Source of the DNA: Spirochaetota bacterium
GTDB lineage: Bacteria > Spirochaetota > UBA4802 > UBA5550
Reading direction: 5' to 3'
Length of the DNA: 64,000 nucleotides
Assembly (NCBI GenBank): GCA_029564515.1
Contig: JAKQPV010000026.1
Coordinates: 38,807 to 102,806, forward strand
Shown here: one piece after another, positions 4,745-20,083 of the stretch
How the letters are laid out: each line of letters opens with the position of its first letter
Numbering within the stretch: position 1 is the first letter of the stretch
Translations under genes and position numbers: made by a program
Notes under the pieces: model-generated
Seen by the model: the letters and a program-made list of their open reading frames with translations, nothing else
Told to the model about the DNA's origin: nothing
The model's database searches: none

Positions 4745-4986
4745 TCTCGCAGAGGCACAGAGACGCAGAGTTTGATAATCATGACCCTAAATATACATCA
4801 AACGGTTTGTGTTGCAATAATAATATTCTTAAAATTAATGATTATTAATTCCTTGTTGCGGTGCAAAGATGAAGAATTTGCCGATCCACTTACTTTAAAA
4901 TATATGAAACATTTAGTACCTGAAACAAATAAGTTGCCGGTAAAAGCCAACCCTCGTTTCCTCTGCGCCTCGGCGACTCCGCGAGA
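4745..4986. repeat. Imperfect 26-bp inverted repeats enclosing an AT-rich spacer (MITE-like)
   Basis: TCTCGCAGAGGCACAGAGACGCAGAG (4745-4770) vs CTCTGCGCCTCGGCGACTCCGCGAGA (4961-4986), 21/26 inverted match. Confidence 0.6.
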
Positions 4987-4994
4987 ACATTTTT

Positions 4995-5915
4995 TTAAAC
5001 TTTCTCGCTTACAGGAGATTGTTCTTTTTTACTCCCTGACTTTTCCAGGTATTTCTTCGACTTCTCAAGCGGATTGATGACCGGCACCGGACAGACGTAC
5101 ACGCACCGGTAGCACTGTATGCAGATATCGTAATCTATGTGCGCGCAGAAATTCGTCACCGTAATGGCGGGTACGATCGTCGCAGGGTCCGTGCCGGGAG
5201 ACCGGGCGGCGAGCGCCTCGCGGCACGCCTTCTCGCAGAGCTTGCAGGCTATGCAGCCGACCGAGCACCCCTGCTTCATGACCGGCGCCTTTTCCTCGTT
5301 GATGCACATCACGTAAATGTCGTTGTCGCGCGGCGTGAGGCTTATGATGGCGCGGGGGCATGCCGCCACGCAGAGGCCGCACCCGGTGCAGAGCCCGGCA
5401 TTGACCACCGGAAGACCGTTGGCGCTCATGGTAATCGCTCCGAAGGGGCAGGCCCTCTCGCAGTCGCCGAAACCCAGGCAGCCGTACCGGCAGGTCTTGA
5501 ACCCGCCCATGGTGCCGTTAGCCGCACCGCAGTCGCGCGGGCCGCTGTATTCGAAGCGGTTCGTCGTCTCGGCCCTGCCGCCGCGGCAGTGAACGCGGGC
5601 CGTGAGCGGCATCATGCCGCCGCCATACGCCACCTCCATGACATCGGCGATTTTCCGCGCCACGTCATCCCCCCCGACCGGGCATAAATTGATCGCGAAC
5701 TTGTCCTCGACAATGCGGGTCGCGTACGCCGAGCACCCGGGCATGCCGCAGGCGCCGCAGTTGGCGCCCGGGAGCGCCTCGAGCACTCGCTCAACGCGGG
5801 GGTCTTTTTTTACCCGCAGCAGCCGCAGCGCGACGGACAGCAGCAGTCCGAACAGCAGGGCGAGCGCCGTCACCAGAGCCACCGCAGGTATTGAGGGGAA
5901 TATCGTTTCGATCAT
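4995..5915 (-). CDS. rnfB: Rnf electron transport complex subunit B-like polyferredoxin
   Basis: N-terminal TM helix; LPGANCGACGMPGC...CPVGG; CRYGCLGFGDCERACPF; further CxxCxxCxxxCP motifs. Confidence 0.85.
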   Translation of the reverse strand: MIETIFPSIPAVALVTALALLFGLLLSVALRLLRVKKDPRVERVLEALPGANCGACGMPGCSAYATRIVEDKFAINLCPVGGDDVARKIADVMEVAYGGGMMPLTARVHCRGGRAETTNRFEYSGPRDCGAANGTMGGFKTCRYGCLGFGDCERACPFGAITMSANGLPVVNAGLCTGCGLCVAACPRAIISLTPRDNDIYVMCINEEKAPVMKQGCSVGCIACKLCEKACREALAARSPGTDPATIVPAITVTNFCAHIDYDICIQCYRCVYVCPVPVINPLEKSKKYLEKSGSKKEQSPVSEKV

Positions 5916-9541: not shown

Positions 9542-10735
9542 ATGAGCGGCGTTGACATAAAGAAAAGCTACGAGGAAATAAACAGCAAAATCAGACAGGG
9601 AAAGGCGGTTGTCGTCACCGCGGACGAGATGCCGGGCATAGTCGCGAGCGAGGGGGTGGACGGCGCGTTCAGGAAAGTCGACGTGGTCACGACCGGCACC
9701 TTCGGCGCCATGTGTTCCTCCGGCGCGTTCATCAATTTCGGCCATACCAGCCCCCGCATGAAGGCCACGAAGGTGTGGCTTAACAACGTTGAGGCATACG
9801 GCGGGATCGCGGCCGTGGACTGCTATATCGGCGCCACCCAGGTTCAGGAGAACGACCCGCTCAACATGGTGCGGCCCGGTACCTTCAAGTACGGCGGCGG
9901 CCACGTTATCGAGGACCTGATATCCCGTAAGCGGGTGAAGCTCCGCGCCGTAGGCTACGGGACCGACTGCTATCCGCTGAAAGAGCACGAAGCGACCGTT
10001 ACGATCGACGATCTCCGGGACGCGATCATGTTCAATCCCCGCAACGCGTACCAGAACTACAACTGCGCGGTCAACCTGTCGCAGAAGACCATTTACACCT
10101 ACATGGGCATCCTGAAGCCGGACATGGCCAACGCCGGCTACTCGAGCGCGGGCCAGCTCTCGCCGCTGCTGAACGACCCCTATTACTGGACCATCGGCGC
10201 GGGCACGCGGATTTTCCTCTGCGGAGCGGCCGGGTCTGTCGCATGGCACGGCACGCAGCACGCGCCCGGATGCAAGCGCGGCCCCAACGGCATGCCGTGC
10301 GAGGGCGGCGGCACGCTCGCCGTCATCGGTGACATGAAGGGGATGGACCCGCGTTTCGTGCGGGGCGCCTCCTTCACCGGGTACGGCTGCTCGATGATGA
10401 TCGGCATCGGCATCCCCATCCCGATACTGAACCCCGACCTGGCCTATTTCACGGGCCAGTCCGACAAGGACCTCCGCTGCCCGGTGGTCGACTACGGAAG
10501 CGACTACCCCGCCATGGTCGGCAGGACGCTCGGCGAAGTGAGCTACGCGGAGCTGAAGAGCGGGAGCATCGAATTCATGGGAAAGACGATCCAGGCCGCT
10601 CCCCTGTCGAGCTACCCGATGGCCAGGAAGATCGCGACGATTCTGAAAGACTGGATACAGGGCGGCTTTGTCCTGGGCGTGCCGCAGACGCCGCTCCCGA
10701 CCGTGCCCTATGGCAGGGACAATGAAGCGCGCTGA
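9542..10735 (+). CDS. L-aspartate semialdehyde sulfurtransferase (homocysteine biosynthesis protein, DUF39/COG1900)
   Basis: VDVVTTGTFGAMCSSGAFINFGH, GGGHVIEDL, PRNAYQNY, AGQLSPLLNDP. Confidence 0.9.
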   Translation: MSGVDIKKSYEEINSKIRQGKAVVVTADEMPGIVASEGVDGAFRKVDVVTTGTFGAMCSSGAFINFGHTSPRMKATKVWLNNVEAYGGIAAVDCYIGATQVQENDPLNMVRPGTFKYGGGHVIEDLISRKRVKLRAVGYGTDCYPLKEHEATVTIDDLRDAIMFNPRNAYQNYNCAVNLSQKTIYTYMGILKPDMANAGYSSAGQLSPLLNDPYYWTIGAGTRIFLCGAAGSVAWHGTQHAPGCKRGPNGMPCEGGGTLAVIGDMKGMDPRFVRGASFTGYGCSMMIGIGIPIPILNPDLAYFTGQSDKDLRCPVVDYGSDYPAMVGRTLGEVSYAELKSGSIEFMGKTIQAAPLSSYPMARKIATILKDWIQGGFVLGVPQTPLPTVPYGRDNEAR

Positions 10736-11438
10736 GCGGTTTTATCGCGATTTCACCGACACGGCGAGATGGAAAAGCTTCCGCGTGAAGGTGGACACCT
10801 CGGACCTCTACATACGGGCTGATAAAGACCTTTCGGCAGTGGCCGAGAAAATCCTCCGCGCGCTGCGTGACCGGCTCTGGGAGCAGATCGACCGCCAGGG
10901 CGAGTTTCACACCGCGCTCGCGCCGGTAGGCCGCCTTGACGGCAGCCCGGAGATCGTGATCATGATGTACAATGCGTCCGAGCGTGCCGGCGTCGGCCCC
11001 ATGGCCGCGGTCGCCGGCGCGGTGGCCGAGCTGACCGGCCGGGCGCTCGCGCCGCAGTGCAGGGAGATCATCGTGGAAAACGGCGGCGACATATGGATGC
11101 AGCTCGAAGAGCCGGCCACGGTGACGATCTACCCGGGCGGGCACTATTTCAATGCCGTCGCGCTGAAGATCGATCCCCGGCACACGCCCTGCGGCGTGTG
11201 CACCTCCTCGGCGCGGATCGGCCCGTCGATCAGCTTCGGCATGGCGGACGCGGCCACGATCATCGCCCCGGATGCCGCGCTGGCGGACGCGATCGCGACG
11301 GACGTGTGCAACCGGGTGAAGAGCGAAGACGACATGGAGGAAGCTGCCGGCCGCGGCATGGAATGCGGCGCGACCGGCGTGGTCATCATATACCGGGACC
11401 GGCTCGTGGCCCGGGGAGAGGTGGAATTAACCAGATAG
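10722..11438 (+). CDS. UPF0280/ApbE-like protein (COG2122)
   Basis: AGVGPMAAVAGAVAE, IVENGGDI, GVCTSSARIGPSISFG, DAALADAIAT. Confidence 0.9.
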   Translation: MKRAERFYRDFTDTARWKSFRVKVDTSDLYIRADKDLSAVAEKILRALRDRLWEQIDRQGEFHTALAPVGRLDGSPEIVIMMYNASERAGVGPMAAVAGAVAELTGRALAPQCREIIVENGGDIWMQLEEPATVTIYPGGHYFNAVALKIDPRHTPCGVCTSSARIGPSISFGMADAATIIAPDAALADAIATDVCNRVKSEDDMEEAAGRGMECGATGVVIIYRDRLVARGEVELTR

Positions 11439-11463
11439 GTCCGCAAGCGCTTGCGGACCTATC
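11434..11463. repeat. Perfect 30-bp palindrome, copy 1
   Basis: GATAGGTCCGCAAGCGCTTGCGGACCTATC; identical copy at 14187-14216. Confidence 0.9.
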
Positions 11464-11488
11464 CCGGGATGTATTACGGAGAACGAAC

Positions 11489-11908
11489 ATGAAATCAAAA
11501 AACGTGCTTTTAATATTCGACAAGAAGATAATGTACAAGCCGCTCATATACAGGCTCGCAAAAGACTTTGATGTCATCTTCAACGTGCTTGAGGCGAAGA
11601 TACTCCCAAAGCTCGAGGGCCGGCTCATCCTTGAGCTTCGCGGCACGGACCAGTCGATCGATTCAAGCATCGCTTACCTGAGCAGCGAGGGCGTCACGGT
11701 CGAGACGCTGGTCGACAAGATACTGCGGGACGAGGAGCGCTGCATCGACTGCGGCGCCTGCACCTCGGTCTGCCGGGTCGACGCGCTCTGCATCGACCGC
11801 ACCACCATGGAGGTCACCTTTGATCACGAAAAGTGCGTGGCGTGCGGGATGTGCAAGCTCGCTTGTCCCGTTGGCGCCATGAGCGGGGCGAGCATCGATC
11901 TGGATTAG
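11489..11908 (+). CDS. NIL domain / 2x[4Fe-4S] ferredoxin (partner of the ASA sulfurtransferase)
   Basis: Start MKSKNV at 11489; NIL-type FNVLEAKI..EGRLILEL; CIDCGACTSVC and CVACGMCKLACP. Confidence 0.9.
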   Translation: MKSKNVLLIFDKKIMYKPLIYRLAKDFDVIFNVLEAKILPKLEGRLILELRGTDQSIDSSIAYLSSEGVTVETLVDKILRDEERCIDCGACTSVCRVDALCIDRTTMEVTFDHEKCVACGMCKLACPVGAMSGASIDLD

Positions 11909-12165: not shown

Positions 12166-12825
12166 TTACCACTGGTCATTCTGCTTGCTTCCGCCATGCT
12201 CCTTCACGGTCGCCATCAAATCATCAAGATATATGTATTCCCACTGGGAAGGTTTACCCGTAGATACGGTGGTCCTGTACTGGATGCTCATGATTTTAAT
12301 GGTTTTCTTCTTGTTCTGGAAAGCATTCCCCTGGTTTATCTTATTCGTCAGCAGAACGGTAAACTGCTTCCAGCCCAGAAAGTTGATTACCGGGACAACG
12401 ACAAGCCTGTGGCTGACCTGGTCTGCGTCCTGAAGCATCAGGGAAATCTCTCCGTATGTTTTTTCCCCATACACCCATAACGATATGGATTTGCAATAAT
12501 TCTCCAGTATGATTTCTTTCGGCGGTTTTATGACAAACGTATCGCTGCCCCGCGTTTTAACCTTTATACCAAGGTATTTCTTCGAGTTGGCCGTGGCAGG
12601 GGACTCGTTCCGGATTGAGAGACCAGCCTCCTGGTCGGACGAGACACTATAGGTGATGTCTTTGTTCGAAAATGGTGTTGTTTCAAAATCTTCCAGCATG
12701 ACCTCTTGTAGAACTACCATCGTGCTGGCCGGTTTTTTGTCCTGCTTTTCAATGCCTTTTTCCTGGGTATAAAGGGGCGTCGCCAATGCAAGTGCCGCTA
12801 CTACCATAAGAAGTTTCTTGAACAT
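12166..12825 (-). CDS. flaA: Flagellar filament outer layer (sheath) protein FlaA
   Basis: Signal peptide; LEDFE, KYLGIKV, KSISLWVYG, INFLGWKQF, YIYLDDL and terminal DQW typical of spirochete FlaA; start MFKKLL. Confidence 0.8.
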   Translation of the reverse strand: MFKKLLMVVAALALATPLYTQEKGIEKQDKKPASTMVVLQEVMLEDFETTPFSNKDITYSVSSDQEAGLSIRNESPATANSKKYLGIKVKTRGSDTFVIKPPKEIILENYCKSISLWVYGEKTYGEISLMLQDADQVSHRLVVVPVINFLGWKQFTVLLTNKINQGNAFQNKKKTIKIMSIQYRTTVSTGKPSQWEYIYLDDLMATVKEHGGSKQNDQW

Positions 12826-13033
12826 TGTGAAATCCTCCAAATTTTATTGCTACGCAGACATTCAACAAATACCCTTTTCGTGTCAACACAATCCAATTTT
12901 TTTCTGCACACATGCGAGGATCTTCATTGAATAGTTTAGTTTTACTTAACAGAATTTCTGTTTTTTCCCGCCCTTTGTGTGGAATATCGGGGTTTCGCGC
13001 CAGTCTACAAGGCAGGTGCGCCAAATCGGGGGC

Positions 13034-14164
13034 CTAAAACTTCTTCCCGAAAAACCGATACGTTTTATATATCTTCGCACCCATGTGCACCAGGGCGTTA
13101 TTCATGCTGTGGTTGTTCTCCACGATAAGCGACATGTCGGCCATGGTATAACCGTGCTTTTTCGCCCGCTCGGCCGTCTCCACGTAAAAATAGGCGTCCA
13201 GGCCCCGCATGCGGAACTCCGGCCTGATCCCCATCAATATCGTTTTAAGCCGGTCAACGCTTCTCATGCCCCACAGGATTTTCAGAAGTCCGAAGGGGAA
13301 GAGCCTCCCGTTGGCCGCCTGCAGCGCGGGGTTGACGTCCGGTATCGAGAGAATAAAGCCGGCCGCTTCGCCGTTATACTCGGCAATAAGCACGAACTCC
13401 GGCTTGACGATTTCCCGGAGCTCCTTCACCGTGTGGGCCATCTGTTTCTCGGTCATGGGGTAATGGCCCCAGTTCTCTCCCCATGCCTCGTTGAAAATGG
13501 TGAAGATCTTCGATTTTTCTTCATCGAACTTCTTTAGATTGAGCTCGCGAATCACCAGCCCGTCCTTGTGCGCCGCCAGGTCCTTTTTCACCTTCTCCCA
13601 TATCTTGTAAAAAAGCTTTGGAAAACGCTCTTCCACCGTGAGCTTGTAGGCGTACCAGTCGATATTTTTCCGGAACCCGTAATCCTCGTACAGGCCCGGG
13701 TAATAGGACGGGTTGTAGGCCAGCTCGACCGCGGGGATATTGTCGTAATCGTCCATCAGCACGCCCGGCGTATCATAGAGCGTGAAGTTGAAGGGCCCCT
13801 GCATGTCGGCCATTCCCTCCCCCTTCAGCCATTCCTCGGCGGCGCCGAACAGCGCGCGGGACACACCGGTATCGTTCAATGATTCGAAGAAGCCTACGCA
13901 CCCGCGCTTCTCCCTGAAGTATTCGTTATGACGATTATCGTAATGCGCTATGATCCTTCCGACGATCTCGCCGTCCCGACAGGCAAGGAACGGCTGGATC
14001 ACGCCGACTTCATGGTAGGGCCCGGCACAAATCAGGTTAACCTGGTCGCCGATGAGGGGCGGCACCCAGTACGGATTTCCGCGGTAAAACCGCCAGGCGG
14101 AGGTGACGAATGTTTTTATTTCGGGTTTCGTGCTGCGAAGGGGTTTGATTATTACAGGTGACAT
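13034..14164 (-). CDS. YghO-family double GNAT; bacterial ceramide synthase (bCerS)-like
   Basis: WVPPL, VGRI.A, GFFES, GPFNFT, YNPSYY, FNEAWGENWGH.P, IPDVN, GIRPEFR.RG, KTYR; adjacent to the SPT-like gene. Confidence 0.8.
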   Translation of the reverse strand: MSPVIIKPLRSTKPEIKTFVTSAWRFYRGNPYWVPPLIGDQVNLICAGPYHEVGVIQPFLACRDGEIVGRIIAHYDNRHNEYFREKRGCVGFFESLNDTGVSRALFGAAEEWLKGEGMADMQGPFNFTLYDTPGVLMDDYDNIPAVELAYNPSYYPGLYEDYGFRKNIDWYAYKLTVEERFPKLFYKIWEKVKKDLAAHKDGLVIRELNLKKFDEEKSKIFTIFNEAWGENWGHYPMTEKQMAHTVKELREIVKPEFVLIAEYNGEAAGFILSIPDVNPALQAANGRLFPFGLLKILWGMRSVDRLKTILMGIRPEFRMRGLDAYFYVETAERAKKHGYTMADMSLIVENNHSMNNALVHMGAKIYKTYRFFGKKF

Positions 14165-14184
14165 CAGTTAATACCTTTCACATT

Positions 14185-14218
14185 CCGATAGGTCCGCAAG
14201 CGCTTGCGGACCTATCGG
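14185..14218. repeat. Perfect palindrome, copy 2 (34 bp)
   Basis: CCGATAGGTCCGCAAGCGCTTGCGGACCTATCGG. Confidence 0.9.
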
Positions 14219-14302
14219 TTTTATCGCTCATTCAAGGAGGCGATTTGTTTTCCCCCACCTCCCCTGTTTAGGGGAGAGGCGTCCGCAGGCCGGATGGGCG
14301 TG

Positions 14303-15496
14303 TTATACTATCCCCAGCTTTTTCCCCACTTTCGCGAAGACGTCCATGCTGAAGTCCAGGTCTTCCTTCGTATGGGTGGCCATGACCCCGAGCCGTATCC
14401 GGGACTCGGCGGGCGCGACCGCCGGGTGAACAATAGGAGAGGCGTAGACCCCTTCGTCGAAAATCATCTTGTTAAAGGTCATGGTCTTTTCCACGTCGCG
14501 GATCAGGAGCGGGACCACCGCGGTGCGCGACGGGCCGGTGTCAAACCCGCGCTCCTTGAGGCCGGCCAGGAAGTAGTTGATGTTGTCCCAGAGCTGCTGC
14601 CGCCACTGAGGCTCCTCGTCCAGGAGCTCAAACGACTTGTATACACCGGCTGCCGTCATGGGCGGCAGCGAGGCCGAGAAAATGTACGCCGAGGCCGCGT
14701 GCCGCAGGTGGTCAATGAAATCGGCCGGCCCGGCCACGAACCCGCCGACCGCACCGGCGAACTTGGAAAAGGTCCCGGCCACGACGTCGGCAGCATCCGG
14801 CAGGCCGAACTGGTCCGGCAGGCCGTACCCGCGCTTGCCGAGCACGCCGAGGCTGTGCGCCTCGTCGATCAGGAGCAGCGCGTCATGCTTGTCCTTAAGC
14901 ACCTGCAGCTTCGCCAGGTCTGCCAGGTCGCCGTCCATGCTGTAAACCGAGTCGACCAGAATCAGCATGCGGGCGTACTTTTTCCTGACCCGTTCCAGGA
15001 GCGAGTCCAGATCCTCGGTATCATTGTGGAGCCACATCCGGCGATCGGCCCCGGAGAGGGTTACGCCGTCCACGATGCTCCGATGCACCAGGCTGTCCAT
15101 GAGGGCTACGTCGCCCTTACCGATGGTCGCCTGTATGCCGGCTACGAGGGCCTGGTAGCCGCTCGCGCAGATAACGCACGCTTCTTTCTCGTACACGCGG
15201 GCGATCTTTTCCTGGAGCCGGTAGTGGACCTCAGTGGTGCCGCAGGCGAGCGGCGAACCGCCGATGCCGAGCCCGTATTTCTCTACCCCGGCAAGGACCG
15301 CTTCCTTCACCTTCGGGTGGGTCGAGAATCCGAGGTAATTGTTGGAGATGAAATTTACACGCTCTTTGCCCGCGACCACGATGCGGTTCCGGCAGGCGGA
15401 GGTGACTTCAAGGCTGTATGTGTAGATATTGGCTTTTCGCAGGGTCCCCAGTAAAACGGCTTGCTGCTTCATTGCGTCGCTGATTAATGCACTCAT
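14303..15496 (-). CDS. Alpha-oxoamine synthase family PLP enzyme, probable serine palmitoyltransferase
   Basis: SNNYLG, HND, DSVYSMDGD, IDEAHSLG and GTFSK (PLP lysine); located between the ACP and bCerS-like genes. Confidence 0.8.
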   Translation of the reverse strand: MSALISDAMKQQAVLLGTLRKANIYTYSLEVTSACRNRIVVAGKERVNFISNNYLGFSTHPKVKEAVLAGVEKYGLGIGGSPLACGTTEVHYRLQEKIARVYEKEACVICASGYQALVAGIQATIGKGDVALMDSLVHRSIVDGVTLSGADRRMWLHNDTEDLDSLLERVRKKYARMLILVDSVYSMDGDLADLAKLQVLKDKHDALLLIDEAHSLGVLGKRGYGLPDQFGLPDAADVVAGTFSKFAGAVGGFVAGPADFIDHLRHAASAYIFSASLPPMTAAGVYKSFELLDEEPQWRQQLWDNINYFLAGLKERGFDTGPSRTAVVPLLIRDVEKTMTFNKMIFDEGVYASPIVHPAVAPAESRIRLGVMATHTKEDLDFSMDVFAKVGKKLGIV

Positions 15497-15538
15497 TGAT
15501 AATTCCCCGTTTGAGATAAAATGAAGGCCGGTTACGGC

Positions 15539-15790
15539 CTATGATAGCTTTGTTTCCAGGTAGCGTATGACCTCAGCTACCGTCTGGAGGTCCATGATCT
15601 CGTCTATTTCGGGATCGAAATCGTACAGCTCGGTGATGCGGGATATCGCCTCCATGCTCTTGAGACTGTCGAAGCCCAGGTCGTCGCGGAACCTGTCTTC
15701 GTTCCTGATTTTATCCGCCGCCCTCCCCGACAGCTTCGCCACAATGGCGAGAAAGTCTTTCCTGATCTGCTCGGCCGGTATGCTGCCCAT
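15539..15790 (-). CDS. Acyl carrier protein
   Basis: AGGAGG RBS before MGSIPAEQ; DDLGFDSL phosphopantetheine site; [11 protein letters not shown]. Confidence 0.9.
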
Positions 15791-15910
15791 TGCATCCTCC
15801 TTTAATAATGCGGCCCCGCTCCTGGCGGGGCTTACCGGCGTATTCTGAAACACGCCGGTTTTATTTCAATGAATATTTACGCCGGCTTCCCGGTGCTCCG
15901 CGCGGCCCGT

Positions 15911-17737
15911 CTACCGGGTGAACCGCCTTCTGAAAAGATGAAAATGGCTCATGAGGAAGGTCCGCGCCAGCACCATCATGTTCCTGCTCTTGTTTTCCAG
16001 GAAATTGTCCTCAAGGTATATCTTCTTGCAGAGGATACGCTGGGTCTTGCCGCTCGTGGTCTTCGGAATCGTGCCCTTGGGCACCAGCATGATGTCGTCG
16101 GGCGCGATGCCCAGCCGCGCCAGCACCTCGGCATGGATCTCCTTCCTGATGCGCTCCATCTCATCGCGGCTCTTCTCCGTTGTTTCGCACACGAGCACCA
16201 GGTCCTCGGTCCCCTGGCCCTCGTTGTGAACGTCAAATGCCGCGCAGCAGCCGAGCCGCACGCCTTTCACGGTCGAGGCGATACGCTCGACGTCATACGG
16301 GTAGATGTTCTTCCCTCGCTTGATGATCATCTCCTTCTTGCGGCCCGAGATGAACAGCATGCCGTCGAGGACGAAGCCCATGTCGCCGGTATGGAGCCAG
16401 CCGCCCTTGAGGGTCTGCTTCGAAGCCTCCCGGTTCTTGTAATACCCGGTGGTCATGCTCGGGCTCTTTACCAGGATCTCGCCGACCTCCCGCTCGTGGA
16501 GCGTGGCGCCCGCCTCGTCGGCGATGCGGATCTCCTGGCCCACCAGCGGGTAGCCGACGGAAACCAGGTCGATGTATTCCTTCGAGTTCTCGCTCGTCGA
16601 GTCCACGGCGAGCAGTTGCTCCTCGAGCTTCGCCCGGGAAAAGCGGCGCACCACGGTGGTCTGCAGCAGCGAGGGGAAGGTGGCAGCCAGGCTGTTTTCC
16701 GCCATACCGTACACCGGCAGGAAGATATCGTCCCGGAGGCCGCAGGGCCGGAACTTCTCGAGGAACTTTGTCAGGGTCGAGCGGTCGATCGGCTCCGCAC
16801 CGTTGAGGGCGAGCCGCCACGAGCTCAGGTCCAGTCTGACCACGTCCGCGTTGTCGATACGGGTCACGCAGTAGTGATAGCCGAAATTGGGCGCGACCCC
16901 CATGGTCACGCGGTAGCGCGAGATGTTCTCGAGCCACCAGAAGGGGCGGAAGATGAAGGCCTCGGGCAGCATCAGCACCATGGTCAGGCCCCAGTAGAGG
17001 GTGCTCAGGAAGCCGCCGATGAGGCCCATGTCGTGGTACATCGGGAGCCAGCTGATACCCACGTCGTCGGGCCTCATCTCGCTGGCAAGCCCGATGCCGT
17101 GAATGTTATGCAGGAGGTTGCGGTGCGACAGCATGACGCCCTTCGGCTTTCCGGTCGTCCCCGACGTGTACTGGATCAGGGCCAGGTCGTCCGGATTCAC
17201 CTCTGGCAGGCGGCGGTACTGCTCTGCCGGCACCGCATTGGCGAGGATCTCATCATCGAAGATGAATCCCTTCACCAGGTTCGAGATGTTCATGAGACTT
17301 GCGGCGATGACCTTTATCTTCTCGTACGTGATGAAGTACTTCGCCTCGCAGTCCTGGATTATATGCGTAAGGTTGTCGAGGTACTTGGCAAGGTTGTTGG
17401 TCCCCGCAGGCTGGCTCACCGGCACCGGAACGCCGCCGGCGAAGAGAATGCCGAAATATACATACGCGAAATTCGGACCGGTCGGCAGCATGATAACGAC
17501 CTTGTCGTCTTTTTCAAGCCCGCGGACCGCCAGGTACTGCGCGACTGCCTTTGCACCGGCCAGGACCTGGGGAGCCGAAACCGTCGTCGGCCTGTTTTTA
17601 AGGTCCATGAAAGTCAGGAAATCCGGACGTCCCGCCGCCCTGTTCACGAGTGCCTCGTTCAGCGTATTCGCCTTCAGCTCATACTGCTCGATATTTTTTT
17701 GATGCGCCAGTTTCTTTGTTTGCGAGACTGCTTTCAT
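15911..17737 (-). CDS. Fatty acyl-AMP ligase (FAAL)
   Basis: QYTSGTTGKPKGV, SWLPMYHDMGLIG, GAEPI, YGMAE followed by a FAAL-type insertion, LHTGDMG, IPKTTSGK. Confidence 0.9.
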   Translation of the reverse strand: MKAVSQTKKLAHQKNIEQYELKANTLNEALVNRAAGRPDFLTFMDLKNRPTTVSAPQVLAGAKAVAQYLAVRGLEKDDKVVIMLPTGPNFAYVYFGILFAGGVPVPVSQPAGTNNLAKYLDNLTHIIQDCEAKYFITYEKIKVIAASLMNISNLVKGFIFDDEILANAVPAEQYRRLPEVNPDDLALIQYTSGTTGKPKGVMLSHRNLLHNIHGIGLASEMRPDDVGISWLPMYHDMGLIGGFLSTLYWGLTMVLMLPEAFIFRPFWWLENISRYRVTMGVAPNFGYHYCVTRIDNADVVRLDLSSWRLALNGAEPIDRSTLTKFLEKFRPCGLRDDIFLPVYGMAENSLAATFPSLLQTTVVRRFSRAKLEEQLLAVDSTSENSKEYIDLVSVGYPLVGQEIRIADEAGATLHEREVGEILVKSPSMTTGYYKNREASKQTLKGGWLHTGDMGFVLDGMLFISGRKKEMIIKRGKNIYPYDVERIASTVKGVRLGCCAAFDVHNEGQGTEDLVLVCETTEKSRDEMERIRKEIHAEVLARLGIAPDDIMLVPKGTIPKTTSGKTQRILCKKIYLEDNFLENKSRNMMVLARTFLMSHFHLFRRRFTR

Positions 17738-17935
17738 TTTTTTATCCTTACCTGTTTTTTTTTACGATTATACTATTTCCCTCTTTAAATTAAATTAAAG
17801 ATCACGAACCGGCTTCATTATTCTCTTGATGAATGGAAAAGTCAGAACAATGCTTTTCGTGCTTTCAAGGGAGAAATTGAGACAATCGTTTAGATCTGCT
17901 TTTTTTTCTTTTGTCAGACATTGAATGTAATATAA

Positions 17936-17952
17936 AGCAAGTTCCGTGCCAA
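17936..17952 (-). promoter_or_regulatory. Sigma54 (-24/-12) promoter of the FAAL-ACP-SPT-GNAT operon
   Basis: Minus strand reads TTGGCACGGAACTTGCT, matching YTGGCACG-N4-TTGCW, about 200 bp upstream of the FAAL start. Confidence 0.85.
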
Positions 17953-18232
17953 CTTAATTTTTTATATTTTTTTAATCCCTGATAAATCGAGGGGTTACAC
18001 ATGATATATACAGATGGTTTCTGAATAGGCCGTTTTGCCCGAAAAATTCATACCCTGTATCATATATACAACAGACATAATCCGTTATTTGTCACTTTTC
18101 AGCAAACCGCTCCCGTATTGTTATTACAAGGAATAATCATTGACATCGGGAATCAGCAGGGGCCAATTCTACAACTGCTTTCTGCAGAAGCTCCGCAGCG
18201 CGGGGATAATGATATCGGGAGGAGGACCGGGT

Positions 18233-19075
18233 ATGTCGAAAAGACAGGCGCCCTTTTCAGGAAAAACTGCCATAATATCAGGCGGCTCCAGGGGAATCGG
18301 AAAGGCCGCGGCACTTGAATTCGTTAAAGGCGGCGGCAGCGTCTGTGTCATCGCCCGCAACAAGAAGGATTTGGAGAGGACTGCCGGCGAGCTCGATACG
18401 GCCAGGACCGTCGATAGCCAGAGCGTTACCAGTATCGTGTGTGACGCCACTGACATAAAAAAACTGCGGCCCCGGATCGACGCATTCATCAAAAAAAACG
18501 GCGTTCCGGATTACCTGATGAATTTCGTCGGATATGCCCGTCCCGGCTATGTAAGCGAGCTCTCGCTTGATGACTTCAGGAACAACATGGACGCAAATTA
18601 CTACGGCCAGCTCGTTCCGATTCTTACGGTTCTGCCCCACTTCATGAAGGAGCGCCGGGGCCATATCGTGACCTGCTCCTCGGTACTCGGTTTTCTCGGA
18701 ATGTTCGGGTATTCGGCATATACGCCGACAAAGTTCGCCATCTGCGGCCTCACCGAATCGCTCCGCAGCGAGATGAAGCCGTTCAATATCAGGTTCTCGA
18801 TCCTCTTCCCGCCCGACACCGACACGCCAGGGTTCGCGAAAGAGAACGAGACCAAGCCCGCCGCCGTCATGGTCCTCTCCGAGGGAGGGGGCCTCATGAC
18901 GCCGGAGCAGGTCGCGCAAAAACTCATGCGCGGTGTGCTCGCAGACAAGTTCTACATCCAGATCGGACAGGGACGGCTCCTCTGGGCGATCGTCCGCCAC
19001 TTCCCCAACCTCGCCCACCGGATCCTCGACGGGGAGACGGCAAAGGCGATCAAAAAAGCCGCGAAAAACCGATGA
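18233..19075 (+). CDS. SDR oxidoreductase, 3-ketodihydrosphingosine reductase (KDSR/Tsc10)-like
   Basis: GGAGG RBS; SGGSRGIG; YSAYTPTK (YxxxK); FPPDTDTPGFAKENETKP resembling the human KDSR segment YPPDTDTPGFAEENRTKP (recalled). Confidence 0.8.
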   Translation: MSKRQAPFSGKTAIISGGSRGIGKAAALEFVKGGGSVCVIARNKKDLERTAGELDTARTVDSQSVTSIVCDATDIKKLRPRIDAFIKKNGVPDYLMNFVGYARPGYVSELSLDDFRNNMDANYYGQLVPILTVLPHFMKERRGHIVTCSSVLGFLGMFGYSAYTPTKFAICGLTESLRSEMKPFNIRFSILFPPDTDTPGFAKENETKPAAVMVLSEGGGLMTPEQVAQKLMRGVLADKFYIQIGQGRLLWAIVRHFPNLAHRILDGETAKAIKKAAKNR

Positions 19076-19135: not shown

Positions 19136-20008
19136 TTACTTGAAGTCGTTTATGCGTTCGGCCTTCTTTTCGTCCTGCTCGACTATCTCCTGCATGTGCT
19201 TGTAGTGCGGAGACTCGACGCCGTATTTCAGCTCCACAGCCTGCAGCATGCTCCTGTTTTTCTTGTTTTTGAAGGTGTTGATCTCGTCCTCGTTCGCGTG
19301 CCGGTACTTCGCCAGAACCTTCTCCATGTAGCCGTAGCAGCTCGCCATGTACTTGTATGCCCATATGTCCTTCGCGTTCTTGTCGGAAATCGCTATGTAG
19401 CGCTCAAGTATCGGGATGCAGGGCTTGAAGTTCTGCAGGTCATACTGGGTCGAAACATAGACCTGGAAGAGCCGCGACTGGAAGTTCAGGAACCGGGACT
19501 CCTGCCTGATCTCTACATGCTGTATCTGGTCGAGATAATCAATCGATTTGGTCAGGTAAGTGACGGCCTTCATCTTGGCCTCATACTTTTTCGCTGCAAC
19601 CTGCCGCTGCTCCTGGTTCTTGCGGTCGATCTCCTGCCAGTAAAACCGCTCGTTCAGGTTTTTCTTCTCCTTGTTGCTGGCTTTGATTTTAATAACCTCA
19701 TTTTCCATGTCCTCGAGGATGTCGATGGCAGTGGAGTACTCGTCAATGGCGAGCTTGAGGAGATTGTCGGAATACTCCTTGTTCAGCTTTTCGAGCTCCT
19801 GGATGGCCTTGATATACGGCTTGAAGTCGCGGATCCGCCATCCCGTCACTTCAACATCGCTGAACTCGTCCGCTACGGACGCGCCTTTCTTTTCATCGGC
19901 CTTGGTCTCGCCGGCCTGCTGCGCGGACACCCGGGACTGGAACGCGACCCCGAGGAATACGGCCATTACGAAGATGGCGCTGATTGTGAAAATGTTTCTT
20001 GGTTTCAT
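19136..20008 (-). CDS. fcpA: Flagellar coiling protein FcpA homolog
   Basis: Signal peptide from MKPRN; ERFYWQEIDRK, YDLQNFKPCIPILERYI, YKYMASCY and ELKYGVESPHYKH match Leptospira FcpA as recalled. Confidence 0.8.
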   Translation of the reverse strand: MKPRNIFTISAIFVMAVFLGVAFQSRVSAQQAGETKADEKKGASVADEFSDVEVTGWRIRDFKPYIKAIQELEKLNKEYSDNLLKLAIDEYSTAIDILEDMENEVIKIKASNKEKKNLNERFYWQEIDRKNQEQRQVAAKKYEAKMKAVTYLTKSIDYLDQIQHVEIRQESRFLNFQSRLFQVYVSTQYDLQNFKPCIPILERYIAISDKNAKDIWAYKYMASCYGYMEKVLAKYRHANEDEINTFKNKKNRSMLQAVELKYGVESPHYKHMQEIVEQDEKKAERINDFK

Positions 20009-20083
20009 ATAACAACCCCTCAAGCAATATAGATAACTCGTACTCAAGCCGCGTATCCGCGGCGGTTCAGTATAACAATATCC

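Follow-up and report, generated by a model that had tools for sequence, protein, structure and literature searches.

A candidate sphingoid base cluster with a KDSR-family reductase in an uncultured wastewater spirochete

A 64,000-nucleotide stretch of DNA from an uncultured wastewater spirochete (contig JAKQPV010000026.1; the whole stretch is called the window here) carries at positions 13034-19075 a set of five genes: a tandem-GNAT N-acyltransferase of the YghO/bCerS family, an alpha-oxoamine synthase (AONS), an acyl carrier protein (ACP), a fatty acyl-AMP ligase (FAAL) and a divergent classical short-chain dehydrogenase/reductase (SDR). Sequence comparisons make it reasonably probable that this locus serves to make a sphingoid long-chain base and, in the present genome, an N-acyl (dihydroceramide-like) derivative of it. 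A sphinganine-type base would be the most likely product, carrying an N-acyl group in genomes with the GNAT. A preliminary description of the same DNA had proposed a self-contained hybrid pathway of ceramide type, and this interpretation is, as a whole, partly supported. The five open reading frames (ORFs) and their strands were found exactly where that description had placed them, and its identities for the GNAT, AONS, ACP, FAAL and SDR were borne out by Pfam, NCBIfam and Escherichia coli homologues. In the ORF list, the FAAL, ACP, AONS and GNAT genes follow one another in this order on the minus strand, and the SDR gene is divergent on the plus strand.

Four steps can be proposed for the pathway. 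The FAAL would turn a free fatty acid into acyl-AMP and load it onto the cluster ACP, as is expected from homology to AasR and AcpR. The Spt-like AONS would then join the acyl-ACP to a small amino acid, most likely L-serine and possibly alanine, to give a 3-keto base. The 3-keto group would be reduced with NAD(P)H by the SDR, a predicted cytoplasmic enzyme of the KDSR family, a role suggested by its family membership and by the linkage of such SDRs to serine palmitoyltransferase (SPT). Finally, the GNAT would N-acylate the base. Gene identities, homologies, synteny and phylogenetic placement are direct observations, and all of the chemical steps are predictions drawn from them.

The FAAL, ACP, AONS and GNAT genes

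The ceramide set of Caulobacter crescentus and E. coli B/BL21 comprises spt, acpR, aasR, epi (= cerR) and aca (Padilla-Gomez et al., PMC9386255). In this source the aca counterpart is listed as "yghO ECD_02850" beside CC_1154, AasR acylates its own AcpR only, and acyl-AcpR is the preferred substrate of Spt. The E. coli cluster taken for comparison (NZ_CP128592.1, locus L024) is annotated by PGAP as spt, acyl carrier protein, NAD-dependent epimerase/dehydratase, fatty acyl-AMP ligase and a divergent yghO. In E. coli K-12, yghO is interrupted by IS5. Four of the five window genes (GNAT, AONS, ACP, FAAL) are full-length homologues of yghO/aca, spt, acpR and aasR, with identities of 25-34%. The spirochete locus is therefore like this Rhodobacteria-type cluster in its dedicated ACP, FAAL-family acyl-ACP synthetase, Spt-type AONS and YghO-family GNAT, and the predicted flow from free fatty acid through acyl-ACP to the AONS would be the same. 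The two differ in that the NDUFA9-like CerR of the Rhodobacteria-type cluster is replaced here by a KDSR-family classical SDR, that the spirochete AONS belongs to another clade than E. coli Spt, that FAAL, ACP, AONS and GNAT form one operon here with the reductase divergent, and that the GNAT is dispensable in many spirochete relatives. Paralogues of LptF and LptG adjoin the spt cluster of E. coli (NZ_CP128592.1, 2318-4464), and none flank the spirochete cluster. A 2026 preprint reportedly describes Lpt-like sphingolipid transport in Caulobacter, which the LptF and LptG genes beside E. coli spt would fit.

The FAAL gene (15911..17737, minus strand) encodes 608 aa with an AMP-binding domain (Pfam, E 1.7e-71) and aligns with the E. 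coli AasR homologue at 34% identity over 545 aa (E 2e-99). Its top NCBIfam model, a "fatty acyl-AMP ligase" subfamily, gives 443 bits, below the cut-off of 600. By these matches the protein is classed as an AasR-type acyl-ACP synthetase of the FAAL family, for which loading of the ACP is predicted. The ACP gene (15539..15853, minus strand) lies directly upstream of the AONS gene and encodes a PP-binding domain (Pfam, E 6.7e-12) with its phosphopantetheine serine at S63 (DSL; codon 15665-15667). The protein has 104 aa from a GTG start, or 83 aa if the ATG at 15790 is used, and its similarity to E. coli AcpR is weak and significant (25% identity over 59 aa, E 3e-06).

The AONS gene (14303..15496, minus strand) encodes an Spt-like protein of 397 aa with an Aminotran_1_2 domain (Pfam, E 4.3e-55), the lysine for pyridoxal phosphate (PLP) being K245 in the motif GTFSK (codon 14762-14764). 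Identity to E. coli Spt is 34% over 363 aa (E 6e-68). Among Protein Data Bank (PDB) sequences, the best match is Sphingobacterium SPT (296.9 bits), followed by Coxiella Kbl (254.8 bits), Thermus BioF/Kbl (254 bits), CapB (224 bits), Sphingomonas SPT (207 bits), CFAT (202 bits), ALAS (198 bits) and BioF (190 bits). CqsA, at 92 bits, is the weakest match bar one, and a CqsA-type autoinducer synthase was rejected as an identity for the AONS at this score. A tree of 55 rows was built by quick search and rooted on E. coli BioF, with E. coli Spt, BioF and Kbl as its named references. In this tree the AONS belongs to a 38-row clade (SH-aLRT 97) of spirochete, Desulfobacterales, Myxococcota and Acidobacteriota proteins. 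Together with the SPT group (support 95), which holds E. coli Spt and SDR-linked SPTs, this clade forms a larger one of 51 rows (support 94) that leaves out E. coli Kbl and BioF. The phylogeny recommended in the preliminary description thus separates the AONS from E. coli BioF and Kbl, as had been expected there, and places it beside the SPT group, not within it.

The same data bear on the possibility that the AONS is a housekeeping BioF or Kbl and that its neighbours are functionally unrelated to it. The window AONS is the sole AONS found in the host genome, which is 85% complete; the NCBIfam models bioF (353.3 bits) and Kbl (344.5 bits) come close to the SPT-CFB model (367.9 bits), a near tie with all three under their cut-offs; and the public names of homologues are "8-amino-7-oxononanoate synthase" and "glycine C-acetyltransferase". 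The bioF and Kbl scores nevertheless stay well under the cut-offs of 426.45 and 460, the tree sets the AONS apart from both E. coli enzymes, and the AONS is fixed beside FAAL and ACP genes in every locus with upstream sequence (14/14). In addition, relatives have a separate BioF-like paralogue: two of them, G208 and G213, carry the window-type AONS (79% and 74% identity) and another copy that groups with E. coli BioF (support 100). The BioF and Kbl identities were rejected on the sub-cut-off scores, the tree placement and this paralogue, and a housekeeping role appears highly improbable.

A more serious rival keeps the same enzyme logic and changes the head group. The AONS would then use alanine or glycine, giving 1-deoxy- or 1-desoxymethyl-sphingoid bases, or cysteate, giving capnine and sulfonolipids, and the SDR and GNAT would still act as 3-keto reductase and N-acyltransferase. 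The position of the AONS in a clade of its own outside the characterised SPTs agrees with this, as does the fact that its nearest non-spirochete relatives are Desulfobacterales proteins (~64% identity); abundant 1-deoxyceramides have been tied to Desulfobacterota and/or Bacteroidota (PMC11334938). Moreover, the sulfonolipid route is made up of the same three enzyme types, and its SDR reductases were found by KDSR homology (PMC11211663). On the other hand, both CapB and CFAT score below Sphingobacterium SPT, and no cysteate synthase exceeded the cut-off in the host genome (60 against 325 bits), a result limited by the 85% completeness of the genome and by an archaeal-type model that may miss the bacterial enzyme. 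The amino-acid substrate of an AONS cannot be read from sequence. Because the window AONS falls outside the known-SPT clade, serine use is inferred, and the sequence neither supports nor excludes alanine or glycine. We regard another head group as possible, at considerably lower probability than a sphinganine-type base.

Other searches with the AONS added little to its sampling. A scan of genome contigs returned close spirochete relatives only, and tblastn against plasmids gave matches of at most 38.5% identity with generic names, which were left out of the tree. A second AONS, 34-38% identical to that of the window, occurs in some genomes of the same genus (G298:C2:942685-943815, locus L137; G208:C58:3608-4786, locus L138). 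The G298 copy groups with E. coli Spt and the G208 copy with the AONS of a metagenomic SDR-AONS contig, L121; within the fetched flanks of these SPT-like paralogues no CerR, YghO, FAAL or SDR genes were found.

The GNAT gene (13034..14164, minus strand) encodes 376 aa and is assigned to the tandem-GNAT N-acyltransferases of the YghO/bCerS (aca) family on YghO homology and an AlphaFold2 model. The label "YghO-type" used in the preliminary description is justified by an end-to-end alignment with E. coli YghO (32% identity over 373 aa, E 4e-67). Pfam recognises Acetyltransf_1 on the C-terminal half only (residues 219-342, E 4.9e-07), and the AlphaFold2 model, built from a 22-sequence alignment (pLDDT 90.7), has two GNAT-like halves. 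The top folds in Foldseek were the clavulanic-acid tandem GNAT, MAB_4324, glucosamine N-acetyltransferase and MshD. The modelled fold is consistent with an N-acyltransferase and does not indicate the acceptor. A PDB sequence search gave nothing meaningful (best E 0.8), and a protein atlas search gave generic GNAT clusters only. In the GNAT tree, the GNATs linked to an AONS stand together as a subclade of a 17-row clade (support 100). E. coli YghO, the only reference for bCerS in this tree, is a long-branch outgroup, so the GNAT is placed at the family level, short of orthology to bCerS; of the relationship to Caulobacter bCerS expected earlier, membership in the YghO family is what stands. The host genome also holds a second YghO-family GNAT, 38% identical and with no AONS nearby (G000:C104:6697-7767, locus L022).

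The KDSR-family reductase

The SDR gene (18233..19075, plus strand, 280 aa) lies in an ORF that opens at TTG 18140. Its start is placed at ATG 18233 because homologues have 280 aa and because a ribosome-binding site, GGAGGAGG, precedes this ATG. The top PDB match is Cryptococcus Tsc10 (8jat; 111.7 bits, E 3.9e-31), aligned over residues 41-275 of the long ORF, and the next single-domain match follows 30 bits lower, at 81.8 bits. The closest SDR paralogue of this genome served as control and matched FabG first (108 bits) and Tsc10 only sixth (84.4 bits); since this control favours FabG, the first rank of Tsc10 is specific, with a moderate margin. Residues 193-209 (window 18809-18859) read PPDTDTPGFAKENETKP. 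This is the segment in which the preliminary description had seen a close resemblance to eukaryotic KDSR/Tsc10, and it does align, within the Tsc10 match, with the counterpart stretch of the Cryptococcus enzyme and with that of Acanthamoeba KDSR, YPPDTDTP. Over 238 aa, including the PPDTDTP stretch, the SDR is 38% identical to the Acanthamoeba protein (E 2e-54).

Searched with phmmer, 1.84 billion representatives yielded 89,560 hits at E <=0.001, 530 of them at E <=1e-30. Many of the best 150 matches have 320-350 aa, with the alignment starting at their own residue 20-42. Of ten clusters of such eukaryotic length that were looked up, two carried names, both of them eukaryotic KDSR (Orbicella at rank 41 and Acanthamoeba at rank 49 of the 89,560), and the ten representatives of ~280 aa that were looked up had no names attached. 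In the JGI annotation many close homologues are called "3-dehydrosphinganine reductase". Residues G17, G18, S19, G21, G23, N122, S149/S150, Y163 and K167 are invariant across 19 homologues. By sequence, the SDR is assigned to the KDSR family and not to CerR, being closer to characterised KDSRs than to other SDR families.

The spirochete protein shares with eukaryotic KDSR/FVT1/Tsc10 the classical SDR type, the glycine motif and the N-S-Y-K residues, along with Tsc10 as its best PDB match. It differs in its length of 280 aa without an N-terminal extension (the Rossmann motif begins at residue 16) and in belonging to a separate tree clade. Eukaryotic KDSR carries transmembrane anchors in N-terminal and C-terminal extensions. 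As the SDR has neither an N-terminal extension nor a signal peptide, it should be cytoplasmic. The cluster holds no CerR-like gene, as had been described, and a genome-wide search of the 85%-complete assembly brought up no convincing CerR homologue, the best match to E. coli CerR being 27% identical (E 1.2e-15) inside a 660-aa frame. The idea of a hybrid is thus upheld in its gene content: counterparts of AasR, AcpR, Spt and YghO/bCerS stand together with a KDSR-family reductase instead of CerR.

Other bacterial reductases of this kind have been described. PfSgaC of Pseudomonas fluorescens MYb115 is an SDR homologous to eukaryotic KDSR in a bacterial sphingolipid cluster (PMC12134224). Compared by its published description, the PfSgaAB(C) system is similar in combining an AONS of SPT activity with a KDSR-homologous SDR, a step that its authors call "eukaryote-like". 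It differs in that its acyl chain is supplied by a type I polyketide synthase (PKS) of the iterative kind, against a FAAL and a free-standing ACP here; no YghO-type GNAT was met in the available description. Bacteroides thetaiotaomicron BT_0972 is an SDR-type 3-KDS reductase (PMC9278070), and the 3-ketocapnine reductases of sulfonolipid synthesis are classical SDRs as well (PMC11211663). Like the window SDR, these enzymes are bacterial classical SDRs, and for them reduction of 3-keto sphingoid or capnoid bases has been shown. They are ~16-30% identical to eukaryotic KDSR and not clustered with SPT/CFAT genes, whereas the spirochete SDR, set apart from them by their descriptions, is much closer to KDSR and adjoins its AONS.

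The named close homologues of the SDR outside the spirochetes, seven in number, all come from metagenome-assembled genomes (MAGs) of Promethearchaeota/Lokiarchaeota (48-54% identity). A profile scan of metagenomes found 80 loci, four of them of spirochete type, and the remaining 76 have SDRs with 47-100% identity to these Asgard-labelled proteins. In an SDR tree of 64 rows (quick search), a 25-row clade (support 99) unites Asgard-labelled and SPT-linked sequences with the spirochete SDRs (7 rows, support 90), which are nested in it. Eukaryotic KDSRs make up a separate clade of 13 rows (support 99), and the two clades share a 53-row group (support 91) with unresolved internal order. The tie to eukaryotic KDSR expected from the preliminary description is therefore seen as a shared group, within which the spirochete SDRs keep to their own clade and are not resolved as sisters of the eukaryotic one. 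The nesting of the spirochete SDRs in an Asgard-labelled set suggests a transfer of the gene, in either direction, between Asgard archaea and spirochetes of sludge or sediment. On this reading the reductase would be part of a prokaryotic KDSR clade confined almost entirely to these spirochetes and to Lokiarchaeia/Promethearchaeota. Eukaryotic sphingolipid metabolism has itself been given an Asgard affinity in a 2026 Nature study (PMC12872458).

Some of these SDRs are linked to an AONS. Among the 46 non-spirochete loci with at least 1300 bp downstream, eight have an AONS gene downstream on the same strand, within ~100 nt in seven of them. The SDRs of these eight contigs (L053, L054, L075, L077, L087, L121, L123, L125) are 47-65% identical to proteins of Promethearchaeota/Lokiarchaeota MAGs. 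The AONS of L075 scores 428.6 bits against Sphingobacterium SPT and ~310 against Sphingomonas SPT, compared with 285 for BioF/Kbl. On that contig a PlsC-type acyltransferase (4774-5676) lies ahead of the SDR-AONS pair. The G+C content, measured for five of the eight contigs, ranges from 31 to 64%, so they probably derive from several organisms, not all of them necessarily archaeal. The usual neighbourhood of the Asgard-type SDR gives no hint of sphingolipids: it consists of further SDRs, aldehyde:ferredoxin oxidoreductase, Fe-ADH, an NAD-kinase-like gene and a methyltransferase. In loci L058-L127 (e.g. L078 6131-16979 and L081 5916-17275) it takes the form of one or two more FabG-like SDRs, a methyltransferase, an NAD-kinase/DAG-kinase-like protein and a 135-aa protein without a Pfam match.

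Conservation in relatives and the order of reactions

Synteny was counted over 17 named loci found via the AONS, some of which were reached twice (L004/L027, L006/L026, L003/L040). Every one of the 14 loci with upstream sequence has FAAL and ACP genes ahead of the AONS. Of the 13 loci that extend 3 kb or more upstream, 11 have the SDR divergent beside the FAAL. Downstream of the AONS, where 14 loci have sequence, the GNAT comes next in only 5. Thus the co-conservation foreseen in the preliminary description holds for the FAAL-ACP-AONS core, which is fixed, and for the most part for the SDR; it fails for the GNAT, linked in a minority, and the five genes do not form a single conserved unit. The gene order of the window recurs in L004-L006 and L048-L050, some of which are the same contigs reached by two routes, and in L031 and L035 the genes after the AONS are on the other strand. 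Two genomes, G253 and G364, have FAAL, ACP, AONS and GNAT without the SDR, and G213 has the three-gene core alone, with a GNAT of 61% identity elsewhere in the genome. In G400 the SDR stands at a contig end beside FcpA and the cluster starts another contig, so its gene order is probably that of the window. The window-type AONS was found in every one of the 13 genus genomes, in 23 of the 61 from the family and in 7 of 25 genera.

Two side observations concern single relatives or paralogues. On L028, an uncultured Leptospirales MAG contig (5-10.5 kb), the SDR is reduced to two short matches, and both FAAL and GNAT are matched in two pieces; this cluster looks degraded or badly assembled. The GNAT paralogue of the 38% type is the sole family member in four of five GNAT-less relatives searched.

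This pattern also bears on a third explanation, in which the FAAL-ACP-AONS core makes a diffusible amino-ketone or amino-alcohol metabolite or signal (such as CAI-1/LAI-1 or a PKS-type sphingoid) rather than a membrane lipid, and the SDR and GNAT are optional tailoring enzymes. A fixed core with variable SDR and GNAT linkage would be expected from it, as would the presence of the cluster in fewer than half of the family genomes, since accessory pathways are often so distributed; the sphingolipids of P. fluorescens MYb115, made by an AONS and KDSR-like SDR cluster, are termed secondary metabolites (PMC12134224). The very low CqsA score of the AONS speaks against it, together with the match of four genes to the membrane-ceramide cluster of E. 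coli and Caulobacter and the occurrence of the cluster throughout the genus. A diffusible product is considered unlikely.

Several observations weigh against sphingoid base synthesis, which we nevertheless prefer. The AONS scores below the cut-off of every NCBIfam model for SPT (three), BioF and Kbl; Sphingomonas SPT scores under Kbl in the PDB search (207 against 255 bits); and the AONS clade is separate from the characterised SPTs, in a quick tree with three named references and several long branches. The SDR family is mostly not beside an AONS (38 of the 46 loci with room), a linked SDR is lacking in two genera (G253/G364; L035/L038), and the unlinked SDR of G253 (39% identity) groups with a paralogue, outside the linked clade. 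As for the GNAT, its linkage is the exception among relatives; the YghO family is broad, with members in 136 of 401 Spirochaetota genomes sampled; an AONS is nearby in only 1 of 11 loci holding GNAT members of ~40% identity; E. coli YghO is distant in the tree; and of five GNAT-less genomes searched, four have a paralogue of 34-36% only and one has none.

Under the sphingoid base reading, the conservation pattern also touches on the order of reactions. In Caulobacter, acylation comes first and the periplasmic CerR then reduces the product, and whether reduction precedes or follows N-acylation when bacteria make ceramide is a matter of dispute (PMC11087976). Since the spirochete SDR is kept in GNAT-less genomes and has no signal peptide, reduction is probably independent of prior N-acylation. 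Reduction followed by acylation, the eukaryotic and not the Caulobacter order, is therefore the probable sequence of events here, and this would be a further difference from the Rhodobacteria-type cluster.

Genomic surroundings, host envelope and significance

The AONS-GNAT gap of 138 nt, against ~3-85 nt in relatives, contains a hairpin at 14185..14218, a perfect 15-bp palindrome found by a terminator-like scan and in the sequence. It may be an attenuator or a remnant of the insertion of the GNAT gene. The AT-rich region of ~495 nt between the divergent FAAL and SDR genes (17738..18232) has putative promoters: sigma-70-like matches are weak and occur on both strands, and promoter-like sites are not above the level of shuffled sequences (6 found, mean 4.0). 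No Rfam match was obtained in 17738-18232; two sub-threshold, chance-level matches lie outside it. RNA libraries from two studies include only short contigs (158-277 nt) that map to the AONS, the FAAL and the FAAL 5' region, with possible carry-over of DNA. Those of X17, and of X18 with X20, are at least 99% alike to the window, and X19 is probably DNA.

The cluster is bracketed by genes of the flagellar sheath of the periplasmic flagellum, one FlaA2-like (12166-12840) and one FcpA-like (19136-20047), and an FcpA-like gene adjoins the cluster in most relatives as well. These flanks agree with the closest relatives being uncultured Spirochaetota/Leptospirales MAGs. Further off, at 9542-11908, an HcyBio-family gene (E 5.3e-150) is followed by a gene for a NIL-domain/4Fe-4S ferredoxin protein. 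Such a pair serves homocysteine synthesis in methanogens and some anaerobic bacteria.

The envelope of the host family may offer a role for the lipid. Among 61 family genomes, LpxC was found in one, on a 900-base contig of G203, and LpxA exceeded the cut-off in none, with one sub-cut-off match in G400; the same searches were positive in E. coli, Caulobacter, Synechococcus and Bacteroides. With these controls positive, the spirochete family is probably without lipid A and looks to be without lipopolysaccharide (LPS). Spirochetes without LPS are known in Treponema and Borrelia, and Sphingomonas has glycosphingolipids in place of LPS. As LpxA and LpxC are not detectable, the cluster lipid may, by analogy with those glycosphingolipids, stand in for LPS in the outer membrane. 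For the family as a whole it cannot take that place, since the cluster is present in only 23 of the 61 genomes. The joint reading, in which a KDSR transfer between Asgard archaea and spirochetes, a reduce-first prokaryotic route and a lipid in place of LPS all hold together, is tentative and on balance doubtful.

Spt-like genes have been predicted in 38 phyla (Ding et al., PMC11334938), and no mention of Spirochaetota occurs in the main text of that paper. No description of sphingolipid synthesis in spirochetes was found in the literature, judged from titles and abstract openings. Because PfSgaC is already in print, a bacterial sphingolipid cluster with a eukaryote-like KDSR is not in itself new. 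The new elements are the host phylum, the joining of FAAL/ACP feeding to a reductase of KDSR type, and the affinity of this reductase to Asgard sequences.

Confirmation of the product would extend sphingolipid synthesis to the Spirochaetota, and within them to an uncultured lineage that is abundant in activated sludge and digesters; DNA runs of activated sludge, wastewater and anaerobic digesters carry the stretch almost whole, and 15 runs contain at least half of its sampled words. The locus would also be a natural experiment on reaction order, with the acyl-ACP feeding of Caulobacter and E. coli coupled to a cytoplasmic KDSR-type reductase instead of the periplasmic CerR. A role in the envelope can be tested in a host family that apparently has no lipid A genes. 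Moreover, the locus supplies a genomic context for a prokaryotic KDSR family that is also found in Asgard archaea. If the KDSR-SPT operons are what they appear to be, they would represent a route in prokaryotes, possibly including Asgard archaea, that reduces first and acylates second, which bears on the origin of the pathway in eukaryotes.

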